A stretch of DNA of 64,000 nt. It comes from an uncultured Lachnospiraceae bacterium (GTDB lineage Bacteria; Bacillota; Clostridia; Lachnospirales; Lachnospiraceae). This document shows, in pieces, positions 24,025 to 36,557 of this stretch. Each line of letters starts with the position of its first letter. Positions within the stretch are counted from its first letter, which is position 1. Location: NCBI GenBank assembly GCA_910588825.1, contig CAJURF010000009.1:7553-71552 (forward strand), written 5' to 3'. The translations under genes were made by a program, and so were the position numbers. The notes below the pieces were generated by a model. It worked only from the letters and a program-made list of their open reading frames with translations, had not been told where the DNA came from and ran no database searches.

Positions 24025-24194
24025 TGGTAAATGCTGACACCCCTGCGCACTGAGAGTCATGAAATACTTTGCGCGCTCTGTTATACTGGGTTCGTAAATG
24101 ATCATTACAAAACTGCTTCAAACGCCGCGGGTTTGGAGAAAATAAAAACAAAGCCCGGGCCCGGGTGACGAAATGGATGAAGGAGAGGCAGAAG

Positions 24195-25067
24195 ATGGAC
24201 TGGATTACGGGGATCAGCCAGGCGATTGACTATGTAGAAGACCATATAACAGAACCTGTGAATTATGAGGAAGCAGCAAAATGTGCGTATTCTTCCAGCT
24301 TTCATTTTCAGAGGGTATTTTCTGTGGTCTGTGGTTTTACCCTTGGGGATTATGTAAGGTTCCGCAGGCTGGCCCTTGCCGGCAGGGAGCTTGCGGCGGA
24401 GAATGCCAAGGTGATTGATATTGCCATGAAGTATGGATACGACACGCCGGAGAGTTTTTCCAGGGCATTCACCAGATTTCACGGGTGTTCACCCACCCAG
24501 GCGAAGAAAGGCGCTGTAATCAAGTCATTTTCACGGCTTTCCGTAAAACTAATAGTCAGTGGAGGGACAAAAATGGATTACAGGATCGAGAAGAAGGATG
24601 CGTTTGATGTTCTGGTAAAGCGGAAACGTTTTACGAAGAATAAGGAGATTAACGGACAGGAAATCACAGCATTTTGGGGACAATGTACGGCTGACGGCAC
24701 CATTGACAGAATTACCCGTTATGTGCATAGGGATAATGTGTTTAAAGATTCTATTATCGGAATCGCGCTGGAGTACCTGCCGGGGGATGAGGACTTTCCC
24801 TATGGAATTGGATGCCATTATAACGGGGAACCCGTGACAGATGAGGACCTTGAGGTGGTATCACTTCCAGCGGCGTCTTACGCGGTATTTCCGTGCAGGG
24901 GAGCCATGCCGGAGGCGTTCCAGAAGGTATATAAGTATATCTTTGAGGAATTCTTTTTAAACAGCGAATATCAGCCTAGCGGGGTGGAGATTGAGGCATA
25001 TCCGTCCGCCAATGCCACAGATCCGGATTATTACTGGGAATTGTGGCTGGCTGTGAAAAAGAAATAA
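24195..25067 (+). CDS. AraC family transcriptional regulator with GyrI-like effector-binding domain
   Basis: N-terminal AraC HTH (YSSSFHFQRVFSVVCGFTLGDYVRFRRL). C-terminal GyrI-like small-molecule binding fold. SD AAGGAGAGG. Confidence 0.8.
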   Translation: MDWITGISQAIDYVEDHITEPVNYEEAAKCAYSSSFHFQRVFSVVCGFTLGDYVRFRRLALAGRELAAENAKVIDIAMKYGYDTPESFSRAFTRFHGCSPTQAKKGAVIKSFSRLSVKLIVSGGTKMDYRIEKKDAFDVLVKRKRFTKNKEINGQEITAFWGQCTADGTIDRITRYVHRDNVFKDSIIGIALEYLPGDEDFPYGIGCHYNGEPVTDEDLEVVSLPAASYAVFPCRGAMPEAFQKVYKYIFEEFFLNSEYQPSGVEIEAYPSANATDPDYYWELWLAVKKK

Positions 25068-25118: not shown

Positions 25119-25235
25119 TCATTAGCTCAAGCAGGGAAAATGTCCCGGAATACTGAAAATAGTGTTATGGAAAATGAGAAATGTTATCATCTGAAGGGTT
25201 TGACAGAGAGATTTGGATTGTGGTAGACTATACGC

Positions 25236-26393
25236 ATGTTAGAAAGGACTAACCACAAAAAATGTTTTTGGTCAGATGCAGGGAAATATCTGTGCGTGTG
25301 GTCAGCAGTGATTCTGCTGTTAAGCGGCTGCGGTATTCAGGCGAAAGTTTCCGGGGCTGCTGAAAATACAGGCGGCCAGGCCGGGGAGGCGGCGCAGGAG
25401 ACACAGGCAGGCAAGGCTCCATGGAAAAACCAGGAAAGCCCGGATGACCAGGAGGCTGTGAAAGAATTATTTGCCATGGATACCTACATGACTCTGGCGG
25501 CTTACGGAGACCGGGCCCGGGAGGCAGTGGACGCGGCGGCAGTGGAGATTCAGCGGCTTGAGGGGCTGCTATCCACAGGCGATAGTGAAAGTGAACTCTC
25601 AAAGGTAAATAGAGAGGGCAGGGGAACGTTGTCCAAGGATACGGCGGCTTTGACAGAACGTTCTCTGGAATTGTATCAGGAAACGAAGGGGATTTTTAAT
25701 ATTGCGGTGTATCCAGTGATGAGGGCCTGGGGATTTACAGATGGCAGTTATCGGGTTCCCTCTCAGGAAGAACTGACACAGCTCCTGTCTTTAACGAATG
25801 CCAGAAAGATTAAGTTCGACAGGGATCTGGCGCAGATTTCTTTTGGCCGGGAGGGGATGGAGATTGATCTGGGCGGCATCGCCAAAGGGTATACATCCAA
25901 CCGGATTATGGAGATTTTCCGGGAATACGGGGTGAAGAGCGGGCTTGTGAATCTGGGAGGAAATGTGCAGGCGCTGGGAACGAAGACTGACGGCAGTCTG
26001 TGGCGGGTTTCCATTCTGCATCCGGAGAATACAGAAAGATATGCAGGTATTCTCTCCATTGAGGATTGTGCGGTGGTGACTTCCGGCGGATATGAGCGCT
26101 GTTTTGAAAAGGATGGGACTACCTATCATCACATTATTGATCCACGGACGGGATATCCGGCAGACAGCGGTCTGGAATCTGTGACCATTGTCAGTCCGGA
26201 CGGGACTCTGGCGGATGGATTGTCCACGTCGTTTTTTGTTATGGGACTGGAGAAAGCAAGTGCATATTGGAGAGAGCACCAGGAGGAATTTGAGATGGTT
26301 CTCATGTCAAAAGAAGGCGGATTGTATGTGACAAAAGGCATTGCGGAGCATTTCACGTCAGACTATGAGATTACAGTGATTGAAGGAAAGTAG
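25236..26393 (+). CDS. apbE: FAD:protein FMN transferase (ApbE family) lipoprotein
   Basis: Lipobox LLLSGCG. ApbE hallmarks FAMDTYMTLAAYG and GGIAKGYTSNRI. Confidence 0.85.
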   Translation: MLERTNHKKCFWSDAGKYLCVWSAVILLLSGCGIQAKVSGAAENTGGQAGEAAQETQAGKAPWKNQESPDDQEAVKELFAMDTYMTLAAYGDRAREAVDAAAVEIQRLEGLLSTGDSESELSKVNREGRGTLSKDTAALTERSLELYQETKGIFNIAVYPVMRAWGFTDGSYRVPSQEELTQLLSLTNARKIKFDRDLAQISFGREGMEIDLGGIAKGYTSNRIMEIFREYGVKSGLVNLGGNVQALGTKTDGSLWRVSILHPENTERYAGILSIEDCAVVTSGGYERCFEKDGTTYHHIIDPRTGYPADSGLESVTIVSPDGTLADGLSTSFFVMGLEKASAYWREHQEEFEMVLMSKEGGLYVTKGIAEHFTSDYEITVIEGK

Positions 26394-26401
26394 TGAAAGA
26401 A

Positions 26402-28402
26402 ATGAAAAAGATATGGAAAATCCTTCCCACGCTGGCTCCTGTGCTGGCAGTGGGCGGGGTGGCCGCGGGAGCGGCGGCAGGCCTTGGCAGTTATACGGTT
26501 CCGGCGTACGGGGCAGAGGAATTCAGGATTCCCGGCTCAAGGGGACTGGCGGCGCAGGGGGATGATGTGAATAAAACGGTTCAACAGCCTAAGGAGACTG
26601 GGAAGCCTGCAGACACCGGGAAGCCGGAAGAAAAGAAATCAAGAAAAGAACAATCAAAAGGGTCTTTTCAGCTGGCAGACGGCATCTATGAAGGAACCGG
26701 AACAGGGTATCGTGGAGAGATAAAGGCTGCTGTAAACATTAAGAATCAATCCATTGAGGCCGTTGATATACTCAGCCATTCAGATGACGAGGCTTTCTTC
26801 AACAGGGCAAAGGAGGGCGTGGTCGGCAGCATGTTAGCCGGCCAGACCACAGAGGTGGATACGGTGACCGGAGCCACTTACAGCTCCAAGGGGATTATAC
26901 AGGCGGTGAAAAATGCGCTGAAAGAAGATGCGGGAAGCAGTGAAACACCAAAGAGCACTGCCCCGTCTGGAAGCCAGACAAAAACCCAGGGCTCTGGGGT
27001 AATTGGGCAGGGGAATCTTTCCTATGCGGACGGCACCTATGAGGGGAGTGCCCCTGGCTTTTCCGGAGAGGTGAGGGTTTCCGTGACAGTAAAAGACAAG
27101 ACCATTACGGCCATAGATATTTTAAGCCATTCAGATGATGAATCTTTCTTTGGAAGGGCCAGGGAAGGCGTGGTCAGCAGCATTCTTTCGTCTCAGCAGC
27201 TGGAGGTGGATGCCGTGTCCGGGGCCACTTACAGTTCCAACGGGATTATCAATGCGGTGAAAAATGCCCTCAGCGGTGCGAAAAGCCCCACGGAGGGACA
27301 GCAGGGGGGAAGTACGCCCACGGCATCTCCTGAACCGGTAAAGAAAGTGAAAGAGCCCAAAGCGTATAAAGACGGAACCTATACCGGGACAGGAACCGGG
27401 TTTGGGGGAGAGCTTACGGTAAAAGTAAAGGTTGCCAAAGGGAAGGTCAAAAAAATCCAGATTGTCAGCAGCAGTGACGGTGAGGAATATATCAGGAAAG
27501 CGAAAGCACTGCTGAAAACCATCTGTGAAAAACAGAGTACCAATGTGGATGCCGTGTCTGGTGCTACCTACAGCTCCGCAGGGATTATTGAGGCTGTGAG
27601 AAACGCTCTGGCAAAGGCGGCCGTCTCCAAAAGTACCCCGTCACCCACGAAAACGCCCACGGTTTCTCCCGGAGCGGCGCAGGGGCTGTTTCCTTATCCC
27701 GACGGCACTTACACGGGAACAGGAGAAGGTTTCGGGGGGAAAATTACGGTGGAAGTACAGATAAAAAAGAAAGCCATTGCAAGTGTAGTGGTGACGGAAC
27801 ACAGGGATGAGGACGATGGGTTCTTCAACCGGGCAAAAACACTGGTGGATCAGATTGTGAAAAATCAGAGTGTGGACATAGACGCTGTGTCCGGGGCTAC
27901 CTACAGTTCCAGAGGGATTCTGGAGGCCGTGAAAAATGCCCTGAAAGCGGCAGCTGCAGGCACGCCGTCAGCCACAGGTACTCCCCCGGCCACAGGCACC
28001 CCGCCAGCTGCAGGGACACCTGCGGCGCCGGAAACTCCATCGCCGTCTGAGACGCCGGGGACAGGTTATAAAGACGGCCTCTATACGGCGTCGGCCCTTT
28101 GCTCGCCAGATGAATACTGGGATTTTGACCCGTATAATCTGAATCTTACGGTTGTCGTGTCAGAGGGAAGGATTACCGCCATACGGAATATTTATGGAGA
28201 CTATGGGGACGACGCTGCGGATAATGATTCTTATGTGAACCGGGCGGCCAATGGAAGCTCTTCTTCGCCGGGGATTGTGAGCCAGATTGTGGAGAAGAAC
28301 AGCGCGGAGGGGATAGATACCGTATCTCATGCCACCTGCTCATCCCGGGCCATTATTGAGGCGTGCAGACAGGCCCTTTTGAAGGCCCAGAATGGACAGT
28401 AA
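26402..28402 (+). CDS. Secreted poly-FMN-binding protein (five tandem FMN_bind domains)
   Basis: Signal peptide. Four repeats containing the flavinylation motif VTGATYSS/VSGATYSS and one degenerate VSHATCSS. Repeats are separated by Pro/Thr/Ser linkers. Confidence 0.8.
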   Translation: MKKIWKILPTLAPVLAVGGVAAGAAAGLGSYTVPAYGAEEFRIPGSRGLAAQGDDVNKTVQQPKETGKPADTGKPEEKKSRKEQSKGSFQLADGIYEGTGTGYRGEIKAAVNIKNQSIEAVDILSHSDDEAFFNRAKEGVVGSMLAGQTTEVDTVTGATYSSKGIIQAVKNALKEDAGSSETPKSTAPSGSQTKTQGSGVIGQGNLSYADGTYEGSAPGFSGEVRVSVTVKDKTITAIDILSHSDDESFFGRAREGVVSSILSSQQLEVDAVSGATYSSNGIINAVKNALSGAKSPTEGQQGGSTPTASPEPVKKVKEPKAYKDGTYTGTGTGFGGELTVKVKVAKGKVKKIQIVSSSDGEEYIRKAKALLKTICEKQSTNVDAVSGATYSSAGIIEAVRNALAKAAVSKSTPSPTKTPTVSPGAAQGLFPYPDGTYTGTGEGFGGKITVEVQIKKKAIASVVVTEHRDEDDGFFNRAKTLVDQIVKNQSVDIDAVSGATYSSRGILEAVKNALKAAAAGTPSATGTPPATGTPPAAGTPAAPETPSPSETPGTGYKDGLYTASALCSPDEYWDFDPYNLNLTVVVSEGRITAIRNIYGDYGDDAADNDSYVNRAANGSSSSPGIVSQIVEKNSAEGIDTVSHATCSSRAIIEACRQALLKAQNGQ

Positions 28403-28421
28403 GAAAAAGGGGGCTCAGGCG

Positions 28422-28895
28422 ATGAGAGGATTTTGGATAAAGACAGTCAGCCTGCTGGGGGTGGTCTGTGTACTGGCAGGTTATGACAAAGTTCTGGCAG
28501 CCAGGGAAAAGGATGAAGAAATCGCCCGGCTGAATGCCCGGGTGGAAGCCATGGAAGAATTTCTTTGCAGCAATATGGGCACACAGGCAGAAGAAGAAAC
28601 AGAGAAAGAGACAAAGATGGACAGCATTTATGCAGACGGGGAATGGGAGGGGGAGGCTCAGGGATTTGGCGGGCCTGTCTCGGTGAAAGTGACAGTGGAA
28701 GGGGGAAAGCTGGCCCAGATAGAGGTTTTGTCGGCAGAAAAGGAAGACCAGACGTATCTGTCTATGGCAGAGGCCATATTGCCAGCCATGCGGCAGGCTC
28801 AGTCCCCGGAGGTGGACACCATAAGCGGAGCCACTTTCAGTTCCCAGGGCCTGAAAGACGCGGTAATGCAGGCGCTTGAGAAGGCGGAAAAGTGA
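28422..28895 (+). CDS. FMN-binding domain protein (single FMN_bind domain, signal anchor)
   Basis: N-terminal TM/signal (IKTVSLLGVVCVLAG). C-terminal DTISGATFSSQG flavinylation motif. SD AAGGGGG. Confidence 0.7.
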   Translation: MRGFWIKTVSLLGVVCVLAGYDKVLAAREKDEEIARLNARVEAMEEFLCSNMGTQAEEETEKETKMDSIYADGEWEGEAQGFGGPVSVKVTVEGGKLAQIEVLSAEKEDQTYLSMAEAILPAMRQAQSPEVDTISGATFSSQGLKDAVMQALEKAEK

Positions 28896-28896
28896 C

Positions 28897-29778
28897 ATGG
28901 AGAGAAAGAAGTTTCATATAGGGAATCTCACGGCAAGACAAAGGAAAAAGCTGCATATGTGGCTCAGGGCGGCGGTTCAGCTTATTTGTTTCCTGTTCTT
29001 TTCTTCGGCGTTTACCGCGGCTTTCGGCGGTGTGAAGTATATAGCCGTTCAGCTGGGGGCAGGAGAGAAGGTGGAATGGACTGGGTTTACGACGGCTTTA
29101 GCCGGATTGTGCGGTTTTACCATTGTATTCGGCCGGTTTTTCTGCGGATTTGCCTGCGCGTTTGGAAGCCTGGGAGATTTTGTCCATAGAGTGTACTGCC
29201 AGATTTGTAAGAAGTTCAGGAGAAAGCCGCTGAAATTAGACGGGAAGTGGAGTACAGGCCTGTCGTCTCTGAAATATTTTGTTCTGGCAGCTGTTGCTGT
29301 GCTGTGTTTTCTGGGAATTTACCCCAGGCTTCGGGGAAGCAGCCCCTGGGATGTGTTTTCCATGATCTGCAGAGGGAATTTCCAGCTTGCCGGATATATT
29401 CCGGGAATTATCATATTGTTGTTGATTTTGGCGGGTATGTGTGTGCAGGAACGGTTTTTCTGCCGCTTCTTATGTCCCATGGGGGCAGTGTTTTCCATGC
29501 TGCCGGTGCTGCCGGTATTTTCCCTGAGTAGGAACCGGGAAACATGCGCTCCCAGATGCTCGGCGTGTACAGGCAGGTGTCCTTCGGATATCCAGCTTCC
29601 CGCAGACGGCTCCTATGAAACACCGGGAGACTGCTTCCAGTGCCAGAAATGCGTGGATACCTGTCCGAAACAGAACATCCATTGCCAGGGCGTGGAGGGA
29701 TTGAGGGGCAACGAGGCTTGGTTCACAGTGGTCCGCAGTGGAATCTTCATAGCAGTGTGTATATGGATTGGAATTTGA
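28897..29778 (+). CDS. NapH/MauN/NosR-type 4Fe-4S-binding integral membrane protein
   Basis: Polytopic, with RFFCGFACAFG and RFFCRFLCPMGA motifs. Two C-terminal ferredoxin motifs CAPRCSACTGRCP and CFQCQKCVDTCP. Confidence 0.75.
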   Translation: MERKKFHIGNLTARQRKKLHMWLRAAVQLICFLFFSSAFTAAFGGVKYIAVQLGAGEKVEWTGFTTALAGLCGFTIVFGRFFCGFACAFGSLGDFVHRVYCQICKKFRRKPLKLDGKWSTGLSSLKYFVLAAVAVLCFLGIYPRLRGSSPWDVFSMICRGNFQLAGYIPGIIILLLILAGMCVQERFFCRFLCPMGAVFSMLPVLPVFSLSRNRETCAPRCSACTGRCPSDIQLPADGSYETPGDCFQCQKCVDTCPKQNIHCQGVEGLRGNEAWFTVVRSGIFIAVCIWIGI

Positions 29779-29838
29779 GCAGTAGTCAGATTTTGGGTTA
29801 GTTTTTACTAATCAAAAAAAGATAACGGAAGATTAATC

Positions 29839-29860
29839 GCCGTTGAAAACGGCTTTTAAT
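29839..29860 (+). terminator. Weak terminator-like hairpin between FMN cluster and LRR protein gene
   Basis: gccgtt-gaa-aacggc followed by TTTTAAT. Short 6-bp stem. Confidence 0.35.
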
Positions 29861-29892
29861 AAAATTTCAAAACAAGGAGGAACTTACAGATT

Positions 29893-32331
29893 ATGATGAG
29901 AAAAGACATTTCGGCAAAATTTCTTGCCATGGCGCTGTCTATCTCCATGCCTGCCGGGCTTTGTATGCCTGCAGTACCTGCATTTGCCGCGGAAGAAAGC
30001 AGTGTAGTGCAGGAGGGAGTTAATAGAGAAGCCGGCGTTTCGGTTAAAAGCATGCCGGGGACAGAAACGGCGGAAGTGACAGCCGGGAATCCAGAAGAAG
30101 TGCCGGACATGGCCCGGGAAGAAATAGCAGAAGACGGGACTGAGGCAGAGAAGTGTGAACCAGAAGATGAGAAAGCTGGTTCAGGAGTAAATGAGGCAGC
30201 AGAAGAAACAGCCAATGAACAGCAGGCTGCCGTAAAGAGCGGACAGTTTGTATTGATGAACATCCCATACGATGATTTCTATAAAGCAGAAATCAATAAT
30301 GATGTTCAGGTTGATGCGTTTACCTCCGCTACACTGAATAAGACCAGGACAGGCGGCAATACTTCCGACGGACTGGCAGCTGGTTCCTATCATGTAAACG
30401 CAGACGGCACAGATATTACAGGGGTGATCTATCCGGTTAAAATAGGGGAAGGCGTGGATCTCACAGGTTATAAGGAGGTGCAGGACAGCGACAGTCTTGA
30501 GATCACTGTGACTAACCGGGGACAGACTTCCACCACAGCTTATACCGGCAGGGAAACACTGTTTGAAAACCCCAGCTATTCCTATTATGTGCTCAGCCAA
30601 AATGAGGTTCCTGACAATTATAAAGAAGTAACTGTGGAAAACCAAAAGCTGGTGTTCGGAAAAGCTCAGGGAAATGTAACCGTTGTGAAAGCTGAGGATG
30701 TGGATGTATCCCTTCAGACAGAAACCAGCTACGGCGATTATGGAATGAAAATAACTAAGAAAGGCACCTCTGAGGTTCCTGATTTCCTGAATGATGTCAA
30801 GGTGTACGGCGTTGTGATCGGCACGGATACCAATGGATATGGACTGCGCCATTTGGAAAATATCTGGAGAAAGTATGACCTGGCATGGTGTACAGGATTT
30901 ACCACAAAGGTTCATAACGGTCCCACATCTTCAGAGCACTATAAGAGCATGATGGGGCAGACCATACGGAAAGTCACTTACTTTACAGACAAGGGCATTT
31001 ATGAAATTGGGTTAGACGGAACTTACATACCAGTTAAATTTCCTTATTCACTGGAAGCATCCAATGCCCCCACAACAGCAGGTTCTGTTCAGATCAGCCT
31101 CAGCGGTCTGCCAAATGACTACAAACCTCAGTATGAAGCGGCCAATCTGGCAGGCGCTGTAGTGAACGGGAATATATTATCCTATACAAAGGAAAATGCT
31201 GAAAAAGGCCAGTATACCCTGAAAATCACAGACCAAGGCGGAAAATACGCCTCTATCAGCACCACATTCCAGCTGTATGTGGATGCGCCGGTTATCTATC
31301 ATTCCAATGATAAGAAACTTGTGTTGAAATCAGGTATGGCAGAGAAGGATTTCACAGATTATGTCAGCAGTATCACATCCGCAGAAGTAAATGGGAAATC
31401 TTATGCGGCAAGCGGGAGAAATTCAGTGAAGCTGGTCAATGAAGACGGTACACTGAAGACAGATGCGGAACCCATTACAGCAGACGGAATTTACCATATT
31501 GTGCTGAGCGCCACGGGATATGCTCCAGTTGAATTTAATTACTCACCCAATATGAAATTGGAGAAACTGGAGGAGGGCATTCAGAAAGCCGGTAAATTAA
31601 AAGCCTCTGTTTATACAGCCGCCAGCTGGAAAAACATGCAGACAGCTCTTACTGTGGCTGAGGAAACGCTGAAGACTGCCAGTTCACAGGAAGAAGTGGA
31701 CAAGGCGGCTGCAGAACTGAACAAGGCAGTGAGTGGGCTGGTGAAGGCGCGGCCGAAAACAGGCACAGTGGTCAAGTCCGGAACCGTCAATTATCAGGTG
31801 AAAACATCCACCACGGTGGCCGCGTCAGGGCCATCCAGCAAGTCAGTGACAAAAGTATCTATTCCGGCATCAATAGTGATCAACGGATACACTTATAAAG
31901 TAACATCTATAGCCAATGAGGCATTTTCCGGCTGTACCAGGCTGAAAACAGCCACCATCGGAAAAAATGTTGCCACAATTGGAACAAAGGCATTTTATAA
32001 TTGTAAAGCAGTCACCCAGGTAACCGTATCTTCCACTGCTTTGACCAAGATTGGAAATTCGGCGTTTATGGGCTGTACTGCAATGACAGGATTCAGTGCC
32101 AGGTCCGCGAAACTGGCTTCCATAGGAAGTAAGGCGTTTTACGGGGATAAGAAGCTGAAAACAATTTCCCTGCACACATCGAAACTGGCCAAGGCAAAAG
32201 TCGGTGCCAGCGCTTTTAAAAAGATAAAGACGTCCTGTGTATTCAAAGTGCCATCTAAGAAAATGAAAGCTTATAAAAAAATATTCCAGGCGAAAGGCGC
32301 GGGAAACAAAATTAAAGTAAAGAAAATATAG
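29893..32331 (+). CDS. Large secreted cell-surface protein with C-terminal BspA-type leucine-rich repeats
   Basis: Signal peptide (AMALSISMPAGLCMPAVPAFAAEE). C-terminal repeats ...IANEAFSGCTRLKTATIGKNVATIGTKAFYNC.... Acidic N-terminal region. SD AAGGAGGAA. Confidence 0.7.
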   Translation: MMRKDISAKFLAMALSISMPAGLCMPAVPAFAAEESSVVQEGVNREAGVSVKSMPGTETAEVTAGNPEEVPDMAREEIAEDGTEAEKCEPEDEKAGSGVNEAAEETANEQQAAVKSGQFVLMNIPYDDFYKAEINNDVQVDAFTSATLNKTRTGGNTSDGLAAGSYHVNADGTDITGVIYPVKIGEGVDLTGYKEVQDSDSLEITVTNRGQTSTTAYTGRETLFENPSYSYYVLSQNEVPDNYKEVTVENQKLVFGKAQGNVTVVKAEDVDVSLQTETSYGDYGMKITKKGTSEVPDFLNDVKVYGVVIGTDTNGYGLRHLENIWRKYDLAWCTGFTTKVHNGPTSSEHYKSMMGQTIRKVTYFTDKGIYEIGLDGTYIPVKFPYSLEASNAPTTAGSVQISLSGLPNDYKPQYEAANLAGAVVNGNILSYTKENAEKGQYTLKITDQGGKYASISTTFQLYVDAPVIYHSNDKKLVLKSGMAEKDFTDYVSSITSAEVNGKSYAASGRNSVKLVNEDGTLKTDAEPITADGIYHIVLSATGYAPVEFNYSPNMKLEKLEEGIQKAGKLKASVYTAASWKNMQTALTVAEETLKTASSQEEVDKAAAELNKAVSGLVKARPKTGTVVKSGTVNYQVKTSTTVAASGPSSKSVTKVSIPASIVINGYTYKVTSIANEAFSGCTRLKTATIGKNVATIGTKAFYNCKAVTQVTVSSTALTKIGNSAFMGCTAMTGFSARSAKLASIGSKAFYGDKKLKTISLHTSKLAKAKVGASAFKKIKTSCVFKVPSKKMKAYKKIFQAKGAGNKIKVKKI

Positions 32332-32344
32332 ACCAGTAAGAAAA

Positions 32345-32380
32345 AGTCTGCTGTGGTTATGCCGCGGCAGACTTTTTGAT
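32345..32380. terminator. Bidirectional rho-independent terminator between convergent genes
   Basis: agtctgc-(loop)-gcagact followed by TTTTT on the plus strand. The minus strand also reads through a T-run. Confidence 0.55.
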
Positions 32381-33911: not shown

Positions 33912-36557
33912 ATGATATTATTAAAGTATTGTAATGTTTCAAGATATAATATAAGTAAAAAGGTGATTCTGAAAGTGAAAAAGAGACATAAAAAGGGAAA
34001 GAGCGGGAATGGTCCCGGTCTGATTCTGTCCATTCTGCTGACTTTTTGTATTTTAGGAACCATTGTTTATTTTGTTGCCAGGAGAATCTCGTCGGAAATG
34101 TCTCAATCAGCGATCAGCAACTTAAGTGAGAGCCTGGAACTGGTCAGGGGTACGATAGAGGCTATTTTGGATAAGGAAGCGGAGTTCCAGAAACTGATGG
34201 CGCAGGAAATCTCGGTTATGGGAAACCCAGAAAAGTTCATCCAGTCGTACAGCGGCAGCCAGACTATGGTAAAGATTTCCTATATTGCAGAGGGGACGAC
34301 GAAAGGGGTTTCGAATACAGGGGAAGAATTTACAGCAGAGGAACTGGATTTTTCATCGGGAAAGTCGGTGGGCGGCCTGCCGGTTTCCACTTCTTATTTG
34401 AATGATATGGGAACCTGGGCATATACAATCAAATGTCCGGTGGTCAGAAATGGTAGAGAGACAGCAGTGCTTTACATAGAATATATCTATGATTCCTTTG
34501 ATGAGGCACTGCCCAGCAGTTTTTATAACCGAAAAGCGACTCTCTACATTATGGATGCAAAAAGCCGCAGGTTTGTGTTAAAACCCAAAGGGCTGAAGGA
34601 GCGGACCCTGGGCCATCTGGATTTGAATGACTTTTACCGTGCCAATTTGATTCTTGAACCGGAGATTCAGGAAGAAGTTTCGCAGTGCATCAGGACTCAG
34701 CGGGATATTATGTTTTACCATACGATTCAGCAGAAAGATTCGCTGATTTATATGTGGGCCGTCAATGAGGGGGCTGTCTATCTGGTGGGGTATGTGCCCA
34801 TAGAGGCCATTCAGCGTGAAGGGGACGCAGTAAACCAGAATATCTTTATTGTGGTCTTTGTAATGCTGGTGGCATTTGTGATCTGCTGCATTTTATATTT
34901 TCTGAATAACAGACAGCAGATGAGATACCGAAAAGAGCAGGAGCGGGAAAGGGAGCTTCATAATCAGCAGCTGGCTGAGGCGCTGCAGGCGGCGCAGATT
35001 GCCAGCAGTTCGAAGACCACATTTTTATCGAATATGTCCCATGATATCCGGACTCCCATGAATGCAATTCTGGGATTTACCATACTGCTTGCAAAAGACG
35101 CGGATAATCCTGGAAAAGTCAGAGAATATACGAAGAAAATCACTGCCTCCGGCCAGCATCTTCTGAGCCTGATCAATGATGTGCTGGATGTCTCTAAAAT
35201 TGAGAGCGGAAAAGTGGTGCTTACCATCGGGGAGTTTACCCTGAACAATATGGTTTCTTCTGTAGATGCCATTATCCGGCCAATGGCCAGAGAAAAGGGA
35301 CAGGAATTTGAGGTTTTAGTCAGCGGTGTGAAACAGGAGCATTTAATCGGTGATGAGACGAGGATTAACCAAATTCTTATTAATCTGCTGTCCAATGCCG
35401 TGAAATATACCCAGGAGGGTGGAAACATATGGCTGCGCATTATCGGGCTGGGGCAGCACTCCAGCCAGTATGAACACATACGGATTGAGGTGGAAGATAA
35501 CGGGTATGGCATGAGCCAGGATTACCTGGAGGTGATTTTTGATGCATTTACCCGGGCGGAAAACAGCACCACCAATAAAGTCCAGGGGACCGGTCTTGGA
35601 ATGGCAATCACAAAAAATATTGTGGAGCTTATGGGCGGCACCATACAGGTGTCCAGCCAGGTGGATAAGGGAAGTCTTTTTATTGTTGAACTGGATCTTC
35701 GCATTCCGGATGGGAAGTCGGATGAGCAGTTCTGGCAGGAGAACAAGATCCACCGGATTCTCGTGGTGGACGATGAGACGGATATGGGCAGAAATATCCA
35801 GATGCTTATGGAAGATGCCGGGGTACAGGCGGAACTGGCATTTTGCGGGGAAGATGCGCTTTGCCGGATACGCAGTGCCCAGGAGATGGGAGAACATTAT
35901 GATGTGATTCTTCTGGACTGGAAAATGCCGGATATGGATGGAATAGAGACAGCAAGGTGCATACGAAAGATTGTCCCGGACGGCACACTTATTTTACTCC
36001 TGAGTGCCCATGATTGGGATGAGATAGAAGAAGATGCCGTCGGGGCAGGGATTCAGGGTTTTCTCACAAAGCCGTTTTTTGTGTCTGCTTTTAAAGAAAA
36101 GATTTTTGAGATCAATACAGCCCATGACCAGGAAATACAGGCGTCAGAGAACGCAAAAGAGCATAGTCTGAACGGGGTGCATTTTCTGGTGGCAGAGGAT
36201 AATGAGATCAATTCAGAGATTCTGGAAGAACTGCTGGAGGTGGAGGGAGCGGTCTGCCACATTGCAGAAAACGGCCATCTGGCAGTGGAAGCTTTCAAAA
36301 ATGCTCCTCCGGGAACATTCGATGCTATTTTGATGGATGTGCAGATGCCTGTTATGAACGGCTATGAGGCAACCCTGGCAATCCGGTCATTGGAGCGGGA
36401 AGACGCGGAAACTATACCGATTATTGCCATGACGGCAAATGCCTTTGCGGAGGATGTGAGAGATGCAAAAGACGCGGGTATGAATGACCATATAGCAAAA
36501 CCCATTGATATGGATATTGTGAGGAAAACATTGTATAAATATCTGAAGGAGAAATAG
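33912..36557 (+). CDS. Hybrid sensor histidine kinase/response regulator (TM-flanked extracytoplasmic sensor domain, HisKA, HATPase, two receivers)
   Basis: H-box SHDIRTPMNAI, GTGLGMAI, two REC domains (VVDDETD...LLDWKMPDMDG and LVAEDNEIN...LMDVQMPVMNG). Alternative GTG start at 33975 with SD AAAAGGTGA. Confidence 0.85.
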   Translation: MILLKYCNVSRYNISKKVILKVKKRHKKGKSGNGPGLILSILLTFCILGTIVYFVARRISSEMSQSAISNLSESLELVRGTIEAILDKEAEFQKLMAQEISVMGNPEKFIQSYSGSQTMVKISYIAEGTTKGVSNTGEEFTAEELDFSSGKSVGGLPVSTSYLNDMGTWAYTIKCPVVRNGRETAVLYIEYIYDSFDEALPSSFYNRKATLYIMDAKSRRFVLKPKGLKERTLGHLDLNDFYRANLILEPEIQEEVSQCIRTQRDIMFYHTIQQKDSLIYMWAVNEGAVYLVGYVPIEAIQREGDAVNQNIFIVVFVMLVAFVICCILYFLNNRQQMRYRKEQERERELHNQQLAEALQAAQIASSSKTTFLSNMSHDIRTPMNAILGFTILLAKDADNPGKVREYTKKITASGQHLLSLINDVLDVSKIESGKVVLTIGEFTLNNMVSSVDAIIRPMAREKGQEFEVLVSGVKQEHLIGDETRINQILINLLSNAVKYTQEGGNIWLRIIGLGQHSSQYEHIRIEVEDNGYGMSQDYLEVIFDAFTRAENSTTNKVQGTGLGMAITKNIVELMGGTIQVSSQVDKGSLFIVELDLRIPDGKSDEQFWQENKIHRILVVDDETDMGRNIQMLMEDAGVQAELAFCGEDALCRIRSAQEMGEHYDVILLDWKMPDMDGIETARCIRKIVPDGTLILLLSAHDWDEIEEDAVGAGIQGFLTKPFFVSAFKEKIFEINTAHDQEIQASENAKEHSLNGVHFLVAEDNEINSEILEELLEVEGAVCHIAENGHLAVEAFKNAPPGTFDAILMDVQMPVMNGYEATLAIRSLEREDAETIPIIAMTANAFAEDVRDAKDAGMNDHIAKPIDMDIVRKTLYKYLKEK

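Follow-up and report, generated by a model that had tools for sequence, protein, structure and literature searches.

A five-gene flavinylation operon of an uncultured Lachnospiraceae bacterium that probably ends in a Tp47-like surface protein

Results

In a stretch of 64,000 nucleotides (nt) from an uncultured Lachnospiraceae bacterium (assembly GCA_910588825.1, contig CAJURF010000009.1, positions 7,553 to 71,552 of the forward strand; hereafter the window), positions 25236-32331 are a five-gene operon and a real unit, which encodes an ApbE-family flavin transferase, a protein with five FMN_bind domains, a membrane-anchored protein with one FMN_bind domain, a NapH-like iron-sulphur (Fe-S) membrane protein and, as gene 5, a secreted cell-surface protein of 812 amino acids (aa) with a domain resembling Tp47, the 47-kDa lipoprotein of Treponema pallidum (Table 1). 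We consider it reasonably probable that this unit is a flavin-based electron chain of the NapH-like class ending in a flavinylated Tp47-like surface module. The earlier note, made from the letters of the window, had described the first four genes as a tightly packed, co-directional set, which they are (all four open reading frames lie on the plus strand, and neighbours abut or overlap), and had closed the module at position 29778; this end had to be given up, as a conserved fifth component follows directly downstream. Identical proteins are encoded in an uncultured Lachnospiraceae metagenome-assembled genome (NCBI MCI8730660-MCI8730670).

Linkage of gene 5 to flavinylation genes

We compared the window proteins by tblastn with 85 loci encoding relatives of the N-domain of gene 5, and read the gene orders from 79 genome loci. 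FMN_bind was found in 71 of the 85 loci, a NapH-like gene in 67, ApbE in 63 and all three in 56, with the partners on the strand of the homologue. Writing A for ApbE, F for FMN_bind, N for NapH-like and T for the Tp47-like domain, the orders among the genome loci were AFNT (22), FNT (7), TAFN (6), AFNTT (5), TFNA (5), TFAFN (4), FTAFN (3) and others, and T stood alone in 10, several of these on short contigs. Culturable relatives with an AFNT operon include Coprococcus catus, Fusicatenibacter saccharivorans and Oliverpabstia intestinalis. An independent metagenomic contig (L002/L003) carries ApbE, poly-FMN_bind, FMN_bind, Fer4_5 and the homologue in the order of the window, and on other contigs the homologue comes first, or ApbE comes last with a Tp47_c/Big_2 protein between. 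Several homologues hold an FMN_bind domain within the same polypeptide, and the canonical D..[ST]GA[ST] motif also occurs in 35 of 138 distant representatives of the family. The linkage thus holds across loci in related genomes, the synteny check that the earlier note had proposed, and a combination of conserved content, shuffled order and fusions classically marks genes as functional partners. The Tp47-like family of gene 5 is very likely a functional partner of the flavin chain, and gene 5 is the best candidate for its acceptor-facing end.

The Roseburia hominis locus has ApbE, FMN_bind, FMN_bind and the homologue. Between its FMN_bind genes and its Tp47-like gene lies a partial NapH-like frame (CP159990, L001 9696-10133; 48% identity over about 145 aa) in which no gene is called, and which looks like the decayed membrane module of an otherwise intact cluster.

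Architecture of the fifth protein and its family

The 812-aa protein has, in order, a cleavable signal peptide (cleaved between AFA and AE), an acidic linker, the Tp47-like domain, a Shr-like haemoglobin-interacting domain (HID), a FIVAR domain and BspA-type leucine-rich repeats (LRR). The Tp47-like domain, about 350 aa long, has no Pfam or NCBIfam match. Searched against the Protein Data Bank (PDB) sequences, the profile of the new domain gave weak matches to Shr structures (6dkq and 7cud), and these for the HID part only. The HID is present in 29 of 49 aligned homologues and absent from true Tp47, and homologues may carry LPXTG, SLH, fn3 or Big_2 in place of the C-terminal accessory domains; the HID, FIVAR and LRR domains probably serve attachment to the wall or to a target.

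The unannotated part has 1628 homologues. A profile search of 1.84 billion representatives returned 1067 clusters at 50% identity, 513 of them with E <= 1e-30. When one genome of each GTDB species was scanned by pattern, 557 encoding stretches turned up, chiefly from Lachnospiraceae and other Clostridia. Many proteins of the family hold 2-8 copies of the domain and reach a length of 2251 aa. Giant members of 1300-2250 aa (P0211-P0214, P0341 and others) have 2-4 Tp47-like copies, each bearing a D..[ST]SAT, and in some of them Tp47-type D.V[ST]RAT and canonical FMN_bind domains alternate with these copies; such giants may be a second kind of "multi-flavin" protein. Exact look-up of P0066, and of the 300-aa NapH-like protein of the window, returned no record.

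A candidate flavinylation motif in the Tp47-like domain

Near the start of the Tp47-like domain, 118 of the 120 top homologues have D-x-x-[T/S]-S-A-T, usually as D-A-F-T-S-A-T, and the D, S, A and T are invariant in two homologue alignments. Among the 138 distant representatives the motif occurs at least once in 132 and twice or more in 80. The consensus for ApbE is D-x-x-[S/T]-G-A-[S/T], with modification of the last residue, and a change of G to A at such a site retains about 50% of the flavinylation (PMC12052999). D-A-F-T-S-A-T thus differs from this consensus solely by Ser for Gly, and so departs from the canonical motif. Other conserved residues of the domain include the Y and H of GSYH and R-H-x-E-N-x-W, and in the structure model (DSSP) T147 opens a short helix right after a strand. 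We lean slightly towards the Tp47-like family being a new class of putative ApbE substrates with a relaxed motif.

Relationship to Tp47

Residues 115-556 were modelled with AlphaFold2 from an alignment of 49 sequences, and the model is confident, with a predicted local distance difference test (pLDDT) value of 90.9 and a predicted template modelling score (pTM) of 0.84. In a Foldseek comparison with the PDB, Tp47 had the top template modelling score (TM-score; 0.37-0.40), and was alone in reaching such a global score, whereas the ranking by E-value was dominated by generic multi-immunoglobulin (Ig) proteins with a TM-score of about 0.15. An hhalign comparison with the alignment of the Tp47 family gave a probability of 81% (E = 1.2e-5); with Tp47 as a lone sequence the probability was 0.17, which is uninformative. 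The profile alignment pairs YVLMNIPYxxFYxAE...VDAFTSAT of the window family with YGYAxLSYAEYWAGE...FDAVSRAT of Tp47, so that the TSAT of the window family falls on the invariant SRAT of Tp47, and YGLRHLENIW of the window protein resembles YGTKHSADSW of Tp47. The sequence of 1o75 includes G-M-F-D-A-V-S-R-A-T-H-G-H-G, where the candidate Thr is T57 of the mature protein and T76 of the precursor, and in 20 aligned Tp47-family proteins the D, V, R and T of the motif, the H-G that follows and YGTKxxxDxW are invariant. Fold and signature motifs are therefore shared in this test of distant homology.

The differences from Tp47 (TP0574, PDB 1o75) are considerable. Identity is 13%, and Tp47 has Arg where the motif of the window protein has Ser. 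It is a lipoprotein without HID, FIVAR or LRR and is described as a penicillin-binding protein, not as a flavoprotein; its partner membrane module in T. pallidum is MsrQ-like, whereas that in the window is NapH-like. Tp47 and its homologues match PF14889 (PBP-Tp47_a) and PF14888 (PBP-Tp47_c), whereas the 812-aa protein matches neither, even at E <= 1.

True PBP-Tp47_a and PBP-Tp47_c domains are found fused or adjacent to members of the window family, and some Tp47 homologues are fused to FMN_bind (P0148, P0152). In each of the six Tp47-family contexts examined, including the contig of T. pallidum type, the Tp47 gene is followed immediately by one for an FMN_bind protein, and the downstream partners of Tp47 are either MsrQ-like plus FMN_bind or FMN_bind plus NapH-like, often with ApbE and EetA/EetB too. 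On the T. pallidum-type contig (L086 6001-8497), which encodes a Tp47 with 99% identity to 1o75, the gene 110 nt downstream encodes a 360-aa membrane protein with a Ferric_reduct (MsrQ-like) domain and a C-terminal FMN_bind domain. The clostridial-type contigs L087 and L089 have Tp47, then FMN_bind, ApbE, a NusG_II protein and a PF07456 protein, where the FMN_bind protein of L087 has a weak Ferric_reduct (MsrQ-like) match at about the Pfam cut-off; two further contigs have Tp47, FMN_bind, (ApbE), FMN_bind and Fer4_5, and L091 has a Tp47 homologue followed by a 380-aa FMN_bind protein. The neighbour of Tp47 on L086 is probably TP0572. TP0171 and the integral membrane protein TP0572 were reported as the only proteins of T. 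pallidum with a flavinylation motif (Deka et al. 2015, PMC4436053). The adjacency of Tp47 and a TP0572-type gene seems to be undiscussed in the literature; a limited literature search found no link of Tp47 or PF14889 to flavin, ApbE or flavinylation, and the supplementary tables of Méheust et al. that were searched had no PF14889, PF14888, PF07550 or Tp47 entries. Taken together, we give an even chance to the wider proposal that Tp47-like domains, true Tp47 included, are an unrecognised class of ApbE-flavinylated redox domains, with the site D-x-x-[ST]-[S/R]-A-T, which would form the outward end of a chain fed by a NapH- or MsrQ-like protein.

ApbE and the FMN_bind proteins

The ApbE of the window matches PF02424 with E = 7.9e-88 (294.9 bits, cut-off 25.6) over profile positions 1-265 of 266, and scores 118 against a cut-off of 498 for the Escherichia coli equivalog model PRK10461, so that it is a member of the family and not that equivalog. 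An identical protein is named "FAD:protein FMN transferase" at NCBI (MCI8730666.1; FMN, flavin mononucleotide; FAD, flavin adenine dinucleotide). Its N-terminus, read from the sequence, has a hydrophobic segment followed by an LLSGC lipobox.

In the 669-aa protein, FMN_bind matches with E = 3.5e-76 over five stretches separated by Pro/Thr/Ser-rich linkers, and the motifs are TGATYS (one), SGATYS (three) and the variant SHATCS (one). The predicted flavinylated residues are Thr162, Thr279, Thr392 and Thr503, plus Thr648 as the variant site. The protein matches the crystal structure 8p2b (CbFMN4 domain 1; E = 4.1e-10), and with an export signal and more than one FMN_bind domain it falls under the multi-flavinylated proteins as defined by Méheust et al. 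in 2021. The 167-aa protein has a hydrophobic segment at residues 13-37 and the motif SGATFS, in which Thr148 is the predicted site. Both FMN_bind proteins together have five canonical D-x-x-[S/T]-G-A-[S/T] motifs, and the sixth site is S-H-A-T. These results bear out what the earlier note had said of the first three genes, namely a lipoprotein ApbE (the peptides it quoted are present), a poly-FMN protein with four canonical motifs and one degenerate motif, a second, anchored FMN-binding protein with one motif, and an extracytosolic location of the flavoproteins, for which signal, lipobox and anchor sequences are present; the check it had proposed for the repeats gave FMN_bind matches in all five stretches, the fifth also when scanned alone.

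The fifth FMN_bind domain deserves a better description than "degenerate". In its orthologues D..S.AT-C-[ST] is conserved, and the position of the Gly is taken by R (the commonest), G, H, S, T or K, so that SHATCS is better described as a variant typical of the lineage; such residues argue that the local ApbEs tolerate non-Gly residues here. The residue after the site is Cys (S-H-A-T-C-S), as in most orthologues (A-T-C-[ST]; a minority have Tyr, Phe, Trp or Leu), and a second Cys lies further upstream (SALCSPDEYW). This could be a Cys pair beside the flavin, and a subtype distinct from the four domains with ...GATYS.

The NapH-like membrane protein

The 300-aa protein matches Fer4_5 (PF12801) with 34.4 bits (cut-off 22), has 5-6 hydrophobic segments by hydropathy and gives weak ferredoxin and polyferredoxin matches. 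It scored 66.6 bits (E = 2.4e-18) against a cut-off of 213 for TIGR02163 (NapH/MauN), 64.1 against 234 for NapH (PRK09477) and 36.1 bits against 1000 for NosR (NF046105). The NapH/NosR type named by the earlier note is consequently right as homology, and membership does not follow, as the scores are below the NCBIfam cut-offs for NapH, NosR and MauN. Likewise, of the two CxxCxxCxxxCP motifs it had listed, that at C253-P264 is canonical, and that at C224-P236 reads CxxxCxxCxxxCP. Two NapH/NosR-type CX3C(P) motifs, RFFCGFACA and RFFCRFLCP, are also present, the first being CX3CA. The positive-inside rule would put the K/R-rich N-terminus, the 100-129 loop and the Cys-rich segment in the cytoplasm, a placement that agrees with the published topology of NapH. 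Having PF12801, several hydrophobic segments and adjacent ApbE and FMN_bind genes, the protein is NapH-like in the sense of Méheust et al. 2021.

Like NosR of nitrous oxide respiration and PceC/RdhC of organohalide respiration, in which the extracytosolic FMN_bind domain is flavinylated, the system combines an extracytosolic FMN_bind part with a polytopic membrane part that has, with deviations, two CX3CP-type motifs and two ferredoxin-type Cys clusters, and the 167-aa protein corresponds to the N-terminal FMN domain of NosR/PceC. Unlike in NosR/PceC, this FMN_bind part is a separate, translationally overlapping gene, one CX3CP is CX3CA, one Cys cluster has CX3C spacing, and there is no NosZ or RdhA. 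The "split NosR/PceC-like" description of the earlier note is thus apt, since the separate anchored FMN_bind gene overlaps the start of the NapH-like gene. Its remark that neither RdhA, NosZ nor FAD_binding_2 is encoded next to the cluster holds to the letter, but leaves aside the adjacent gene 5, the conserved partner. The quinol donor that it had suggested was assumed; the predicted location of the Fe-S motifs is cytoplasmic, and none of the results points to a donor.

Operon boundaries and neighbouring genes

Gene 5 is separated from gene 4 by 114 nt, and a good AAGGAGG ribosome-binding site precedes it. The weak hairpin in this gap is at most a leaky terminator; the strong intrinsic terminator behind gene 5 closes the five-gene unit. 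The -10 element of the candidate promoter ends 7 nt 5' of the apbE ATG, which implies either a leaderless transcript or a true start or promoter elsewhere. Start codons are ambiguous for three of the proteins: some database members of the ApbE have 365 aa instead of 385 aa, the NCBI version of the small FMN_bind protein has 157 aa and starts at Met11, and ATG 28897 is an alternative to the TTG 28876 start of the NapH-like gene.

Table 1. Features of the flavinylation operon, with positions in the window.
Feature	Position	Strand	Evidence or remark
Sigma-70-like promoter candidate	25200..25229	+	TTGACA-18-TAGACT + TG extension, consensus match 10/12; upstream of apbE
ApbE-family FAD:protein FMN transferase, 385 aa, predicted lipoprotein	25236..26393	+	Pfam PF02424
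Multi-flavinylated protein, 669 aa, N-terminal signal or anchor, five FMN_bind	26393..28402	+	Pfam FMN_bind
Fifth FMN_bind domain, motif D-T-V-S-H-A-T-C-S	28028..28399	+	33.8 bits scanned alone, cut-off 22
Membrane-anchored single FMN_bind protein, 167 aa	28392..28895	+	FMN_bind E = 2.2e-14; overlaps both neighbour genes
NapH-like polytopic Fe-S membrane protein, 300 aa	28876..29778	+	Fer4_5 (PF12801)
Two ferredoxin-type Cys clusters	29545..29667	+	C224-x3-C-x2-C-x3-CP (C224-P236), C253-x2-C-x2-C-x3-CP (C253-P264); translation
Weak hairpin	29839..29853	+	-10.2 kcal/mol, z = -2.4; between genes 4 and 5
Secreted cell-surface protein, 812 aa (gene 5)	29893..32331	+	Open reading frame; NCBI "leucine-rich repeat protein", MCI8730670.1
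Tp47-like domain, residues ~117-470	30241..31302	+	Structure model, Foldseek, hhalign
Candidate flavinylation site D141-A-F-T-S-A-T147	30313..30333	+	Motif conservation
Shr-like HID (PF07550), residues 487-548	31351..31536	+	31.5 bits, cut-off 22.3
FIVAR	31561..31740	+	Pfam match
BspA-type LRR	31894..32223	+	LRR_5 E = 4.9e-20
Strong intrinsic terminator, U-tract after	32343..32375	+	-23.2 kcal/mol, z = -5.7, equally stable shuffles 0/200

Directly upstream of the cluster and on the same strand, positions 24165-25067 encode a regulator with an AraC-family helix-turn-helix and a GyrI-like/Cass2 effector-binding domain. We rejected it as a member of the system, as it is not conserved beside the cluster in other genomes, and any regulatory link would therefore be specific to this lineage. 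Downstream, beyond convergent genes, lies a large hybrid sensor kinase (33912-36557) of 881 aa in which the translation shows two receiver domains, followed by a gene for an ABC sugar-binding protein; no sign of a link between the kinase and the cluster was found. No second copy of any of the five genes is present elsewhere in the window.

Discussion

Genes 1-4 are a further example of a catalogued, functionally unsolved kind of cluster. Méheust et al. 2021 (eLife, PMC8238504) listed 2465 flavinylation clusters of NapH-like type, in 539 of which FMN_bind has a gene of its own, as well as 2081 multi-flavinylated proteins, mostly from Gram-positive bacteria, and some of the NapH-like clusters hold large unannotated wall proteins of FIVAR/SLH type (PMC8238504); the cluster type is consequently not new. 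The window shares with the clusters described there and by Huang et al. (PMC11334425) an ApbE, a PF12801 protein, a separate FMN_bind gene, a multi-FMN_bind protein and a nearby FIVAR wall protein. Those clusters are predicted to carry electrons over the membrane and through the Gram-positive wall, and the large neighbour proteins were treated as unannotated wall-binding proteins. In a limited search of this related literature (PMC8238504, PMC11334425), neither the Tp47-like domain nor D-x-F-[TS]-S-A-T was found. ApbE substrate classes described so far are FMN_bind types 1/2, NqrB/RnfD, DUF2271, DUF3570, Flavodoxin_4 and FMN_red (Huang et al. 2024, mSystems, PMC11334425). Tong et al. 2023 (PMC10339131) showed that ApbE flavinylates proteins with several FMNs in vitro and gave a midpoint potential of -184 mV; in the reduced form such a protein can pass electrons to O2 (PMC10339131). 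The structure 8p2b, matched by the 669-aa protein, is one of the domains that they crystallised.

We infer the following order of electron flow. ApbE would use exported FAD to place FMN on five or six FMN_bind sites and on Thr147 of the Tp47-like domain. The two [4Fe-4S]-type sites of the NapH-like protein would be reduced by a donor in the cytoplasm or membrane (or by quinol), and from these sites electrons would cross the membrane to the FMN of the anchored 167-aa protein, and the 669-aa protein, like beads on a string, would relay them through the cell wall via four or five covalent FMNs. The 812-aa Tp47-like module, with FMN at Thr147, would then pass them to an acceptor, either as the terminal reductase or as the outermost relay, while the HID, FIVAR and LRR domains would hold this module on the wall or on a target. 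Candidate acceptors may be O2 or reactive oxygen species, Fe(III) or haem iron (at which the HID may hint), and soluble oxidised metabolites.

The arrangement resembles the flavin-based extracellular electron transfer (EET) of the Gram-positive Listeria monocytogenes (Ndh2, EetA/EetB, FmnA, FmnB and PplA) in having an extracytosolic ApbE (FmnB there) and a surface lipoprotein or secreted protein with covalent FMNs (PplA there) that passes electrons outward. It differs in the membrane module, which is NapH-like here and consists of Ndh2 and demethylmenaquinone in Listeria, and in that Ndh2, DmkA/B and EetA/EetB have no counterpart in the 64-kb window; the PplA model scored 40 bits against a cut-off of 325. 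No Ndh2-like gene was found among the scanned neighbour genes. PF07456 is EetB, an FAD-exporting S-component of the energy-coupling factor type, usually found alongside EetA (PMC9973259). Genes for EetA-like (NusG_II) and EetB-like (PF07456) proteins often lie beside Tp47-like or Tp47 clusters (for example L087 8621-10581, L089 7628-9585 and L006 18600-19499), and 35 of the 85 related loci have EetB no more than 10 kb away. With neither gene in the window, the FAD supply for ApbE must be encoded elsewhere in the genome.

Several points weigh against a chain that ends in a flavinylated Tp47-like module. About 10 of the 79 genome loci have no flavinylation genes nearby, and the flanks are full or nearly so in L016, L052, L059, L068 and L082; the R. 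hominis locus keeps merely a NapH-like remnant; and neither a donor module (Ndh2, quinone synthesis) nor the FAD exporter was found in the window. Ser in place of Gly, or Arg as in Tp47, is undocumented in any proven ApbE substrate, and there is no documented flavin on any Tp47-like protein. Recombinant Tp47 crystallised without flavin; it was made without a flavin transferase, which renders this observation uninformative rather than contrary. Relatives with several tandem copies fit a relay better than a single-site enzyme, which makes the term "terminal reductase" uncertain.

If the four-gene module were complete, the poly-FMN protein would be the terminal wire to soluble or insoluble acceptors and the 812-aa protein an unrelated adhesin. 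Such an adhesin would suit the 114-nt gap with its small hairpin, the public annotation of gene 5 merely as a leucine-rich repeat protein and the domain relatives that lie away from flavinylation genes. We nevertheless hold it to be very improbable, given the same-strand linkage in most of the 85 loci, the rearranged orders, the FMN_bind fusions and the invariant motif, and because the conserved part of gene 5 is the N-domain and not the LRR. Gene 5 might instead be a true partner that is not flavinylated, its Tp47-like domain being a non-redox docking, substrate-binding or scaffold module in which D-x-x-S-x-A-T would bind, for example, phosphate or a non-covalent flavin. The departure from [S/T]GA[S/T] at the Gly, a fold that is largely an Ig-like beta-sandwich as is typical of adhesins, and wall-attachment domains that vary among homologues all agree with this; even so we think it unlikely, since the invariance of D, S, A and T over more than 1000 clusters at 50% identity and the Tp47 family would be hard to explain by a scaffold, the same non-Gly variants occur at true FMN_bind flavinylation sites in these clusters, and ApbE is co-localised even where FMN_bind proteins are few.

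The HID, formerly DUF1533, is common in clostridial surface proteins without a known haem role. Here it is above the Pfam cut-off and weakly matches the HID structure of Shr (6dkq), which would allow a reductive acquisition of iron or haem, where the HID captures a host or dietary haemoprotein and haem iron or Fe(III), once reduced by the flavin chain, is taken up. Several flavinylation systems have been tied to iron reduction or assimilation (Méheust et al., PMC8238504), and the Tp47 neighbours of T. pallidum and of Clostridia have a ferric-reductase-like (MsrQ-like) domain. The cluster and its flanks, on the other hand, have no iron or haem transporter, NEAT domain or haem-degrading gene, and with the patchy occurrence of the HID noted above we regard this function as improbable. 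Still further from likelihood, and close to negligible in our estimate, is a Tp47-like domain that is a penicillin-binding or peptidoglycan enzyme, with the cluster serving cell-wall metabolism. Tp47 is called a penicillin-binding protein in the title of 1o75 and in the Pfam names, and its tripeptide-type motifs SVTK, TEN and KTG were reportedly proposed as penicillin-binding motifs in the original papers. We rejected this reading: SVTK, TEN and KTG are not conserved in the Tp47-family alignment, in which the flavinylation-like motif and YGTKxxxDxW are invariant instead, and the 812-aa protein has neither PF14889 nor PF14888.

Under the reading that we prefer, an electron chain with a flavinylated Tp47-like module at its outer end, gene 5 would supply the missing "business end" for many NapH-like and multi-flavinylated clusters in the abundant Lachnospiraceae of the human gut, in genera such as Coprococcus, Dorea, Blautia, Fusicatenibacter, Anaerostipes, Roseburia and others, and it proposes a seventh class of ApbE substrates, with a relaxed motif. 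The link extends to Tp47, a diagnostic and immunodominant antigen of syphilis; what it does physiologically has been unclear since the 1990s. If true, Tp47 would be a periplasmic flavoprotein and not a penicillin-binding protein, and the finding would redirect work on both the extracellular redox chemistry of the gut and the periplasmic flavin biology of T. pallidum.

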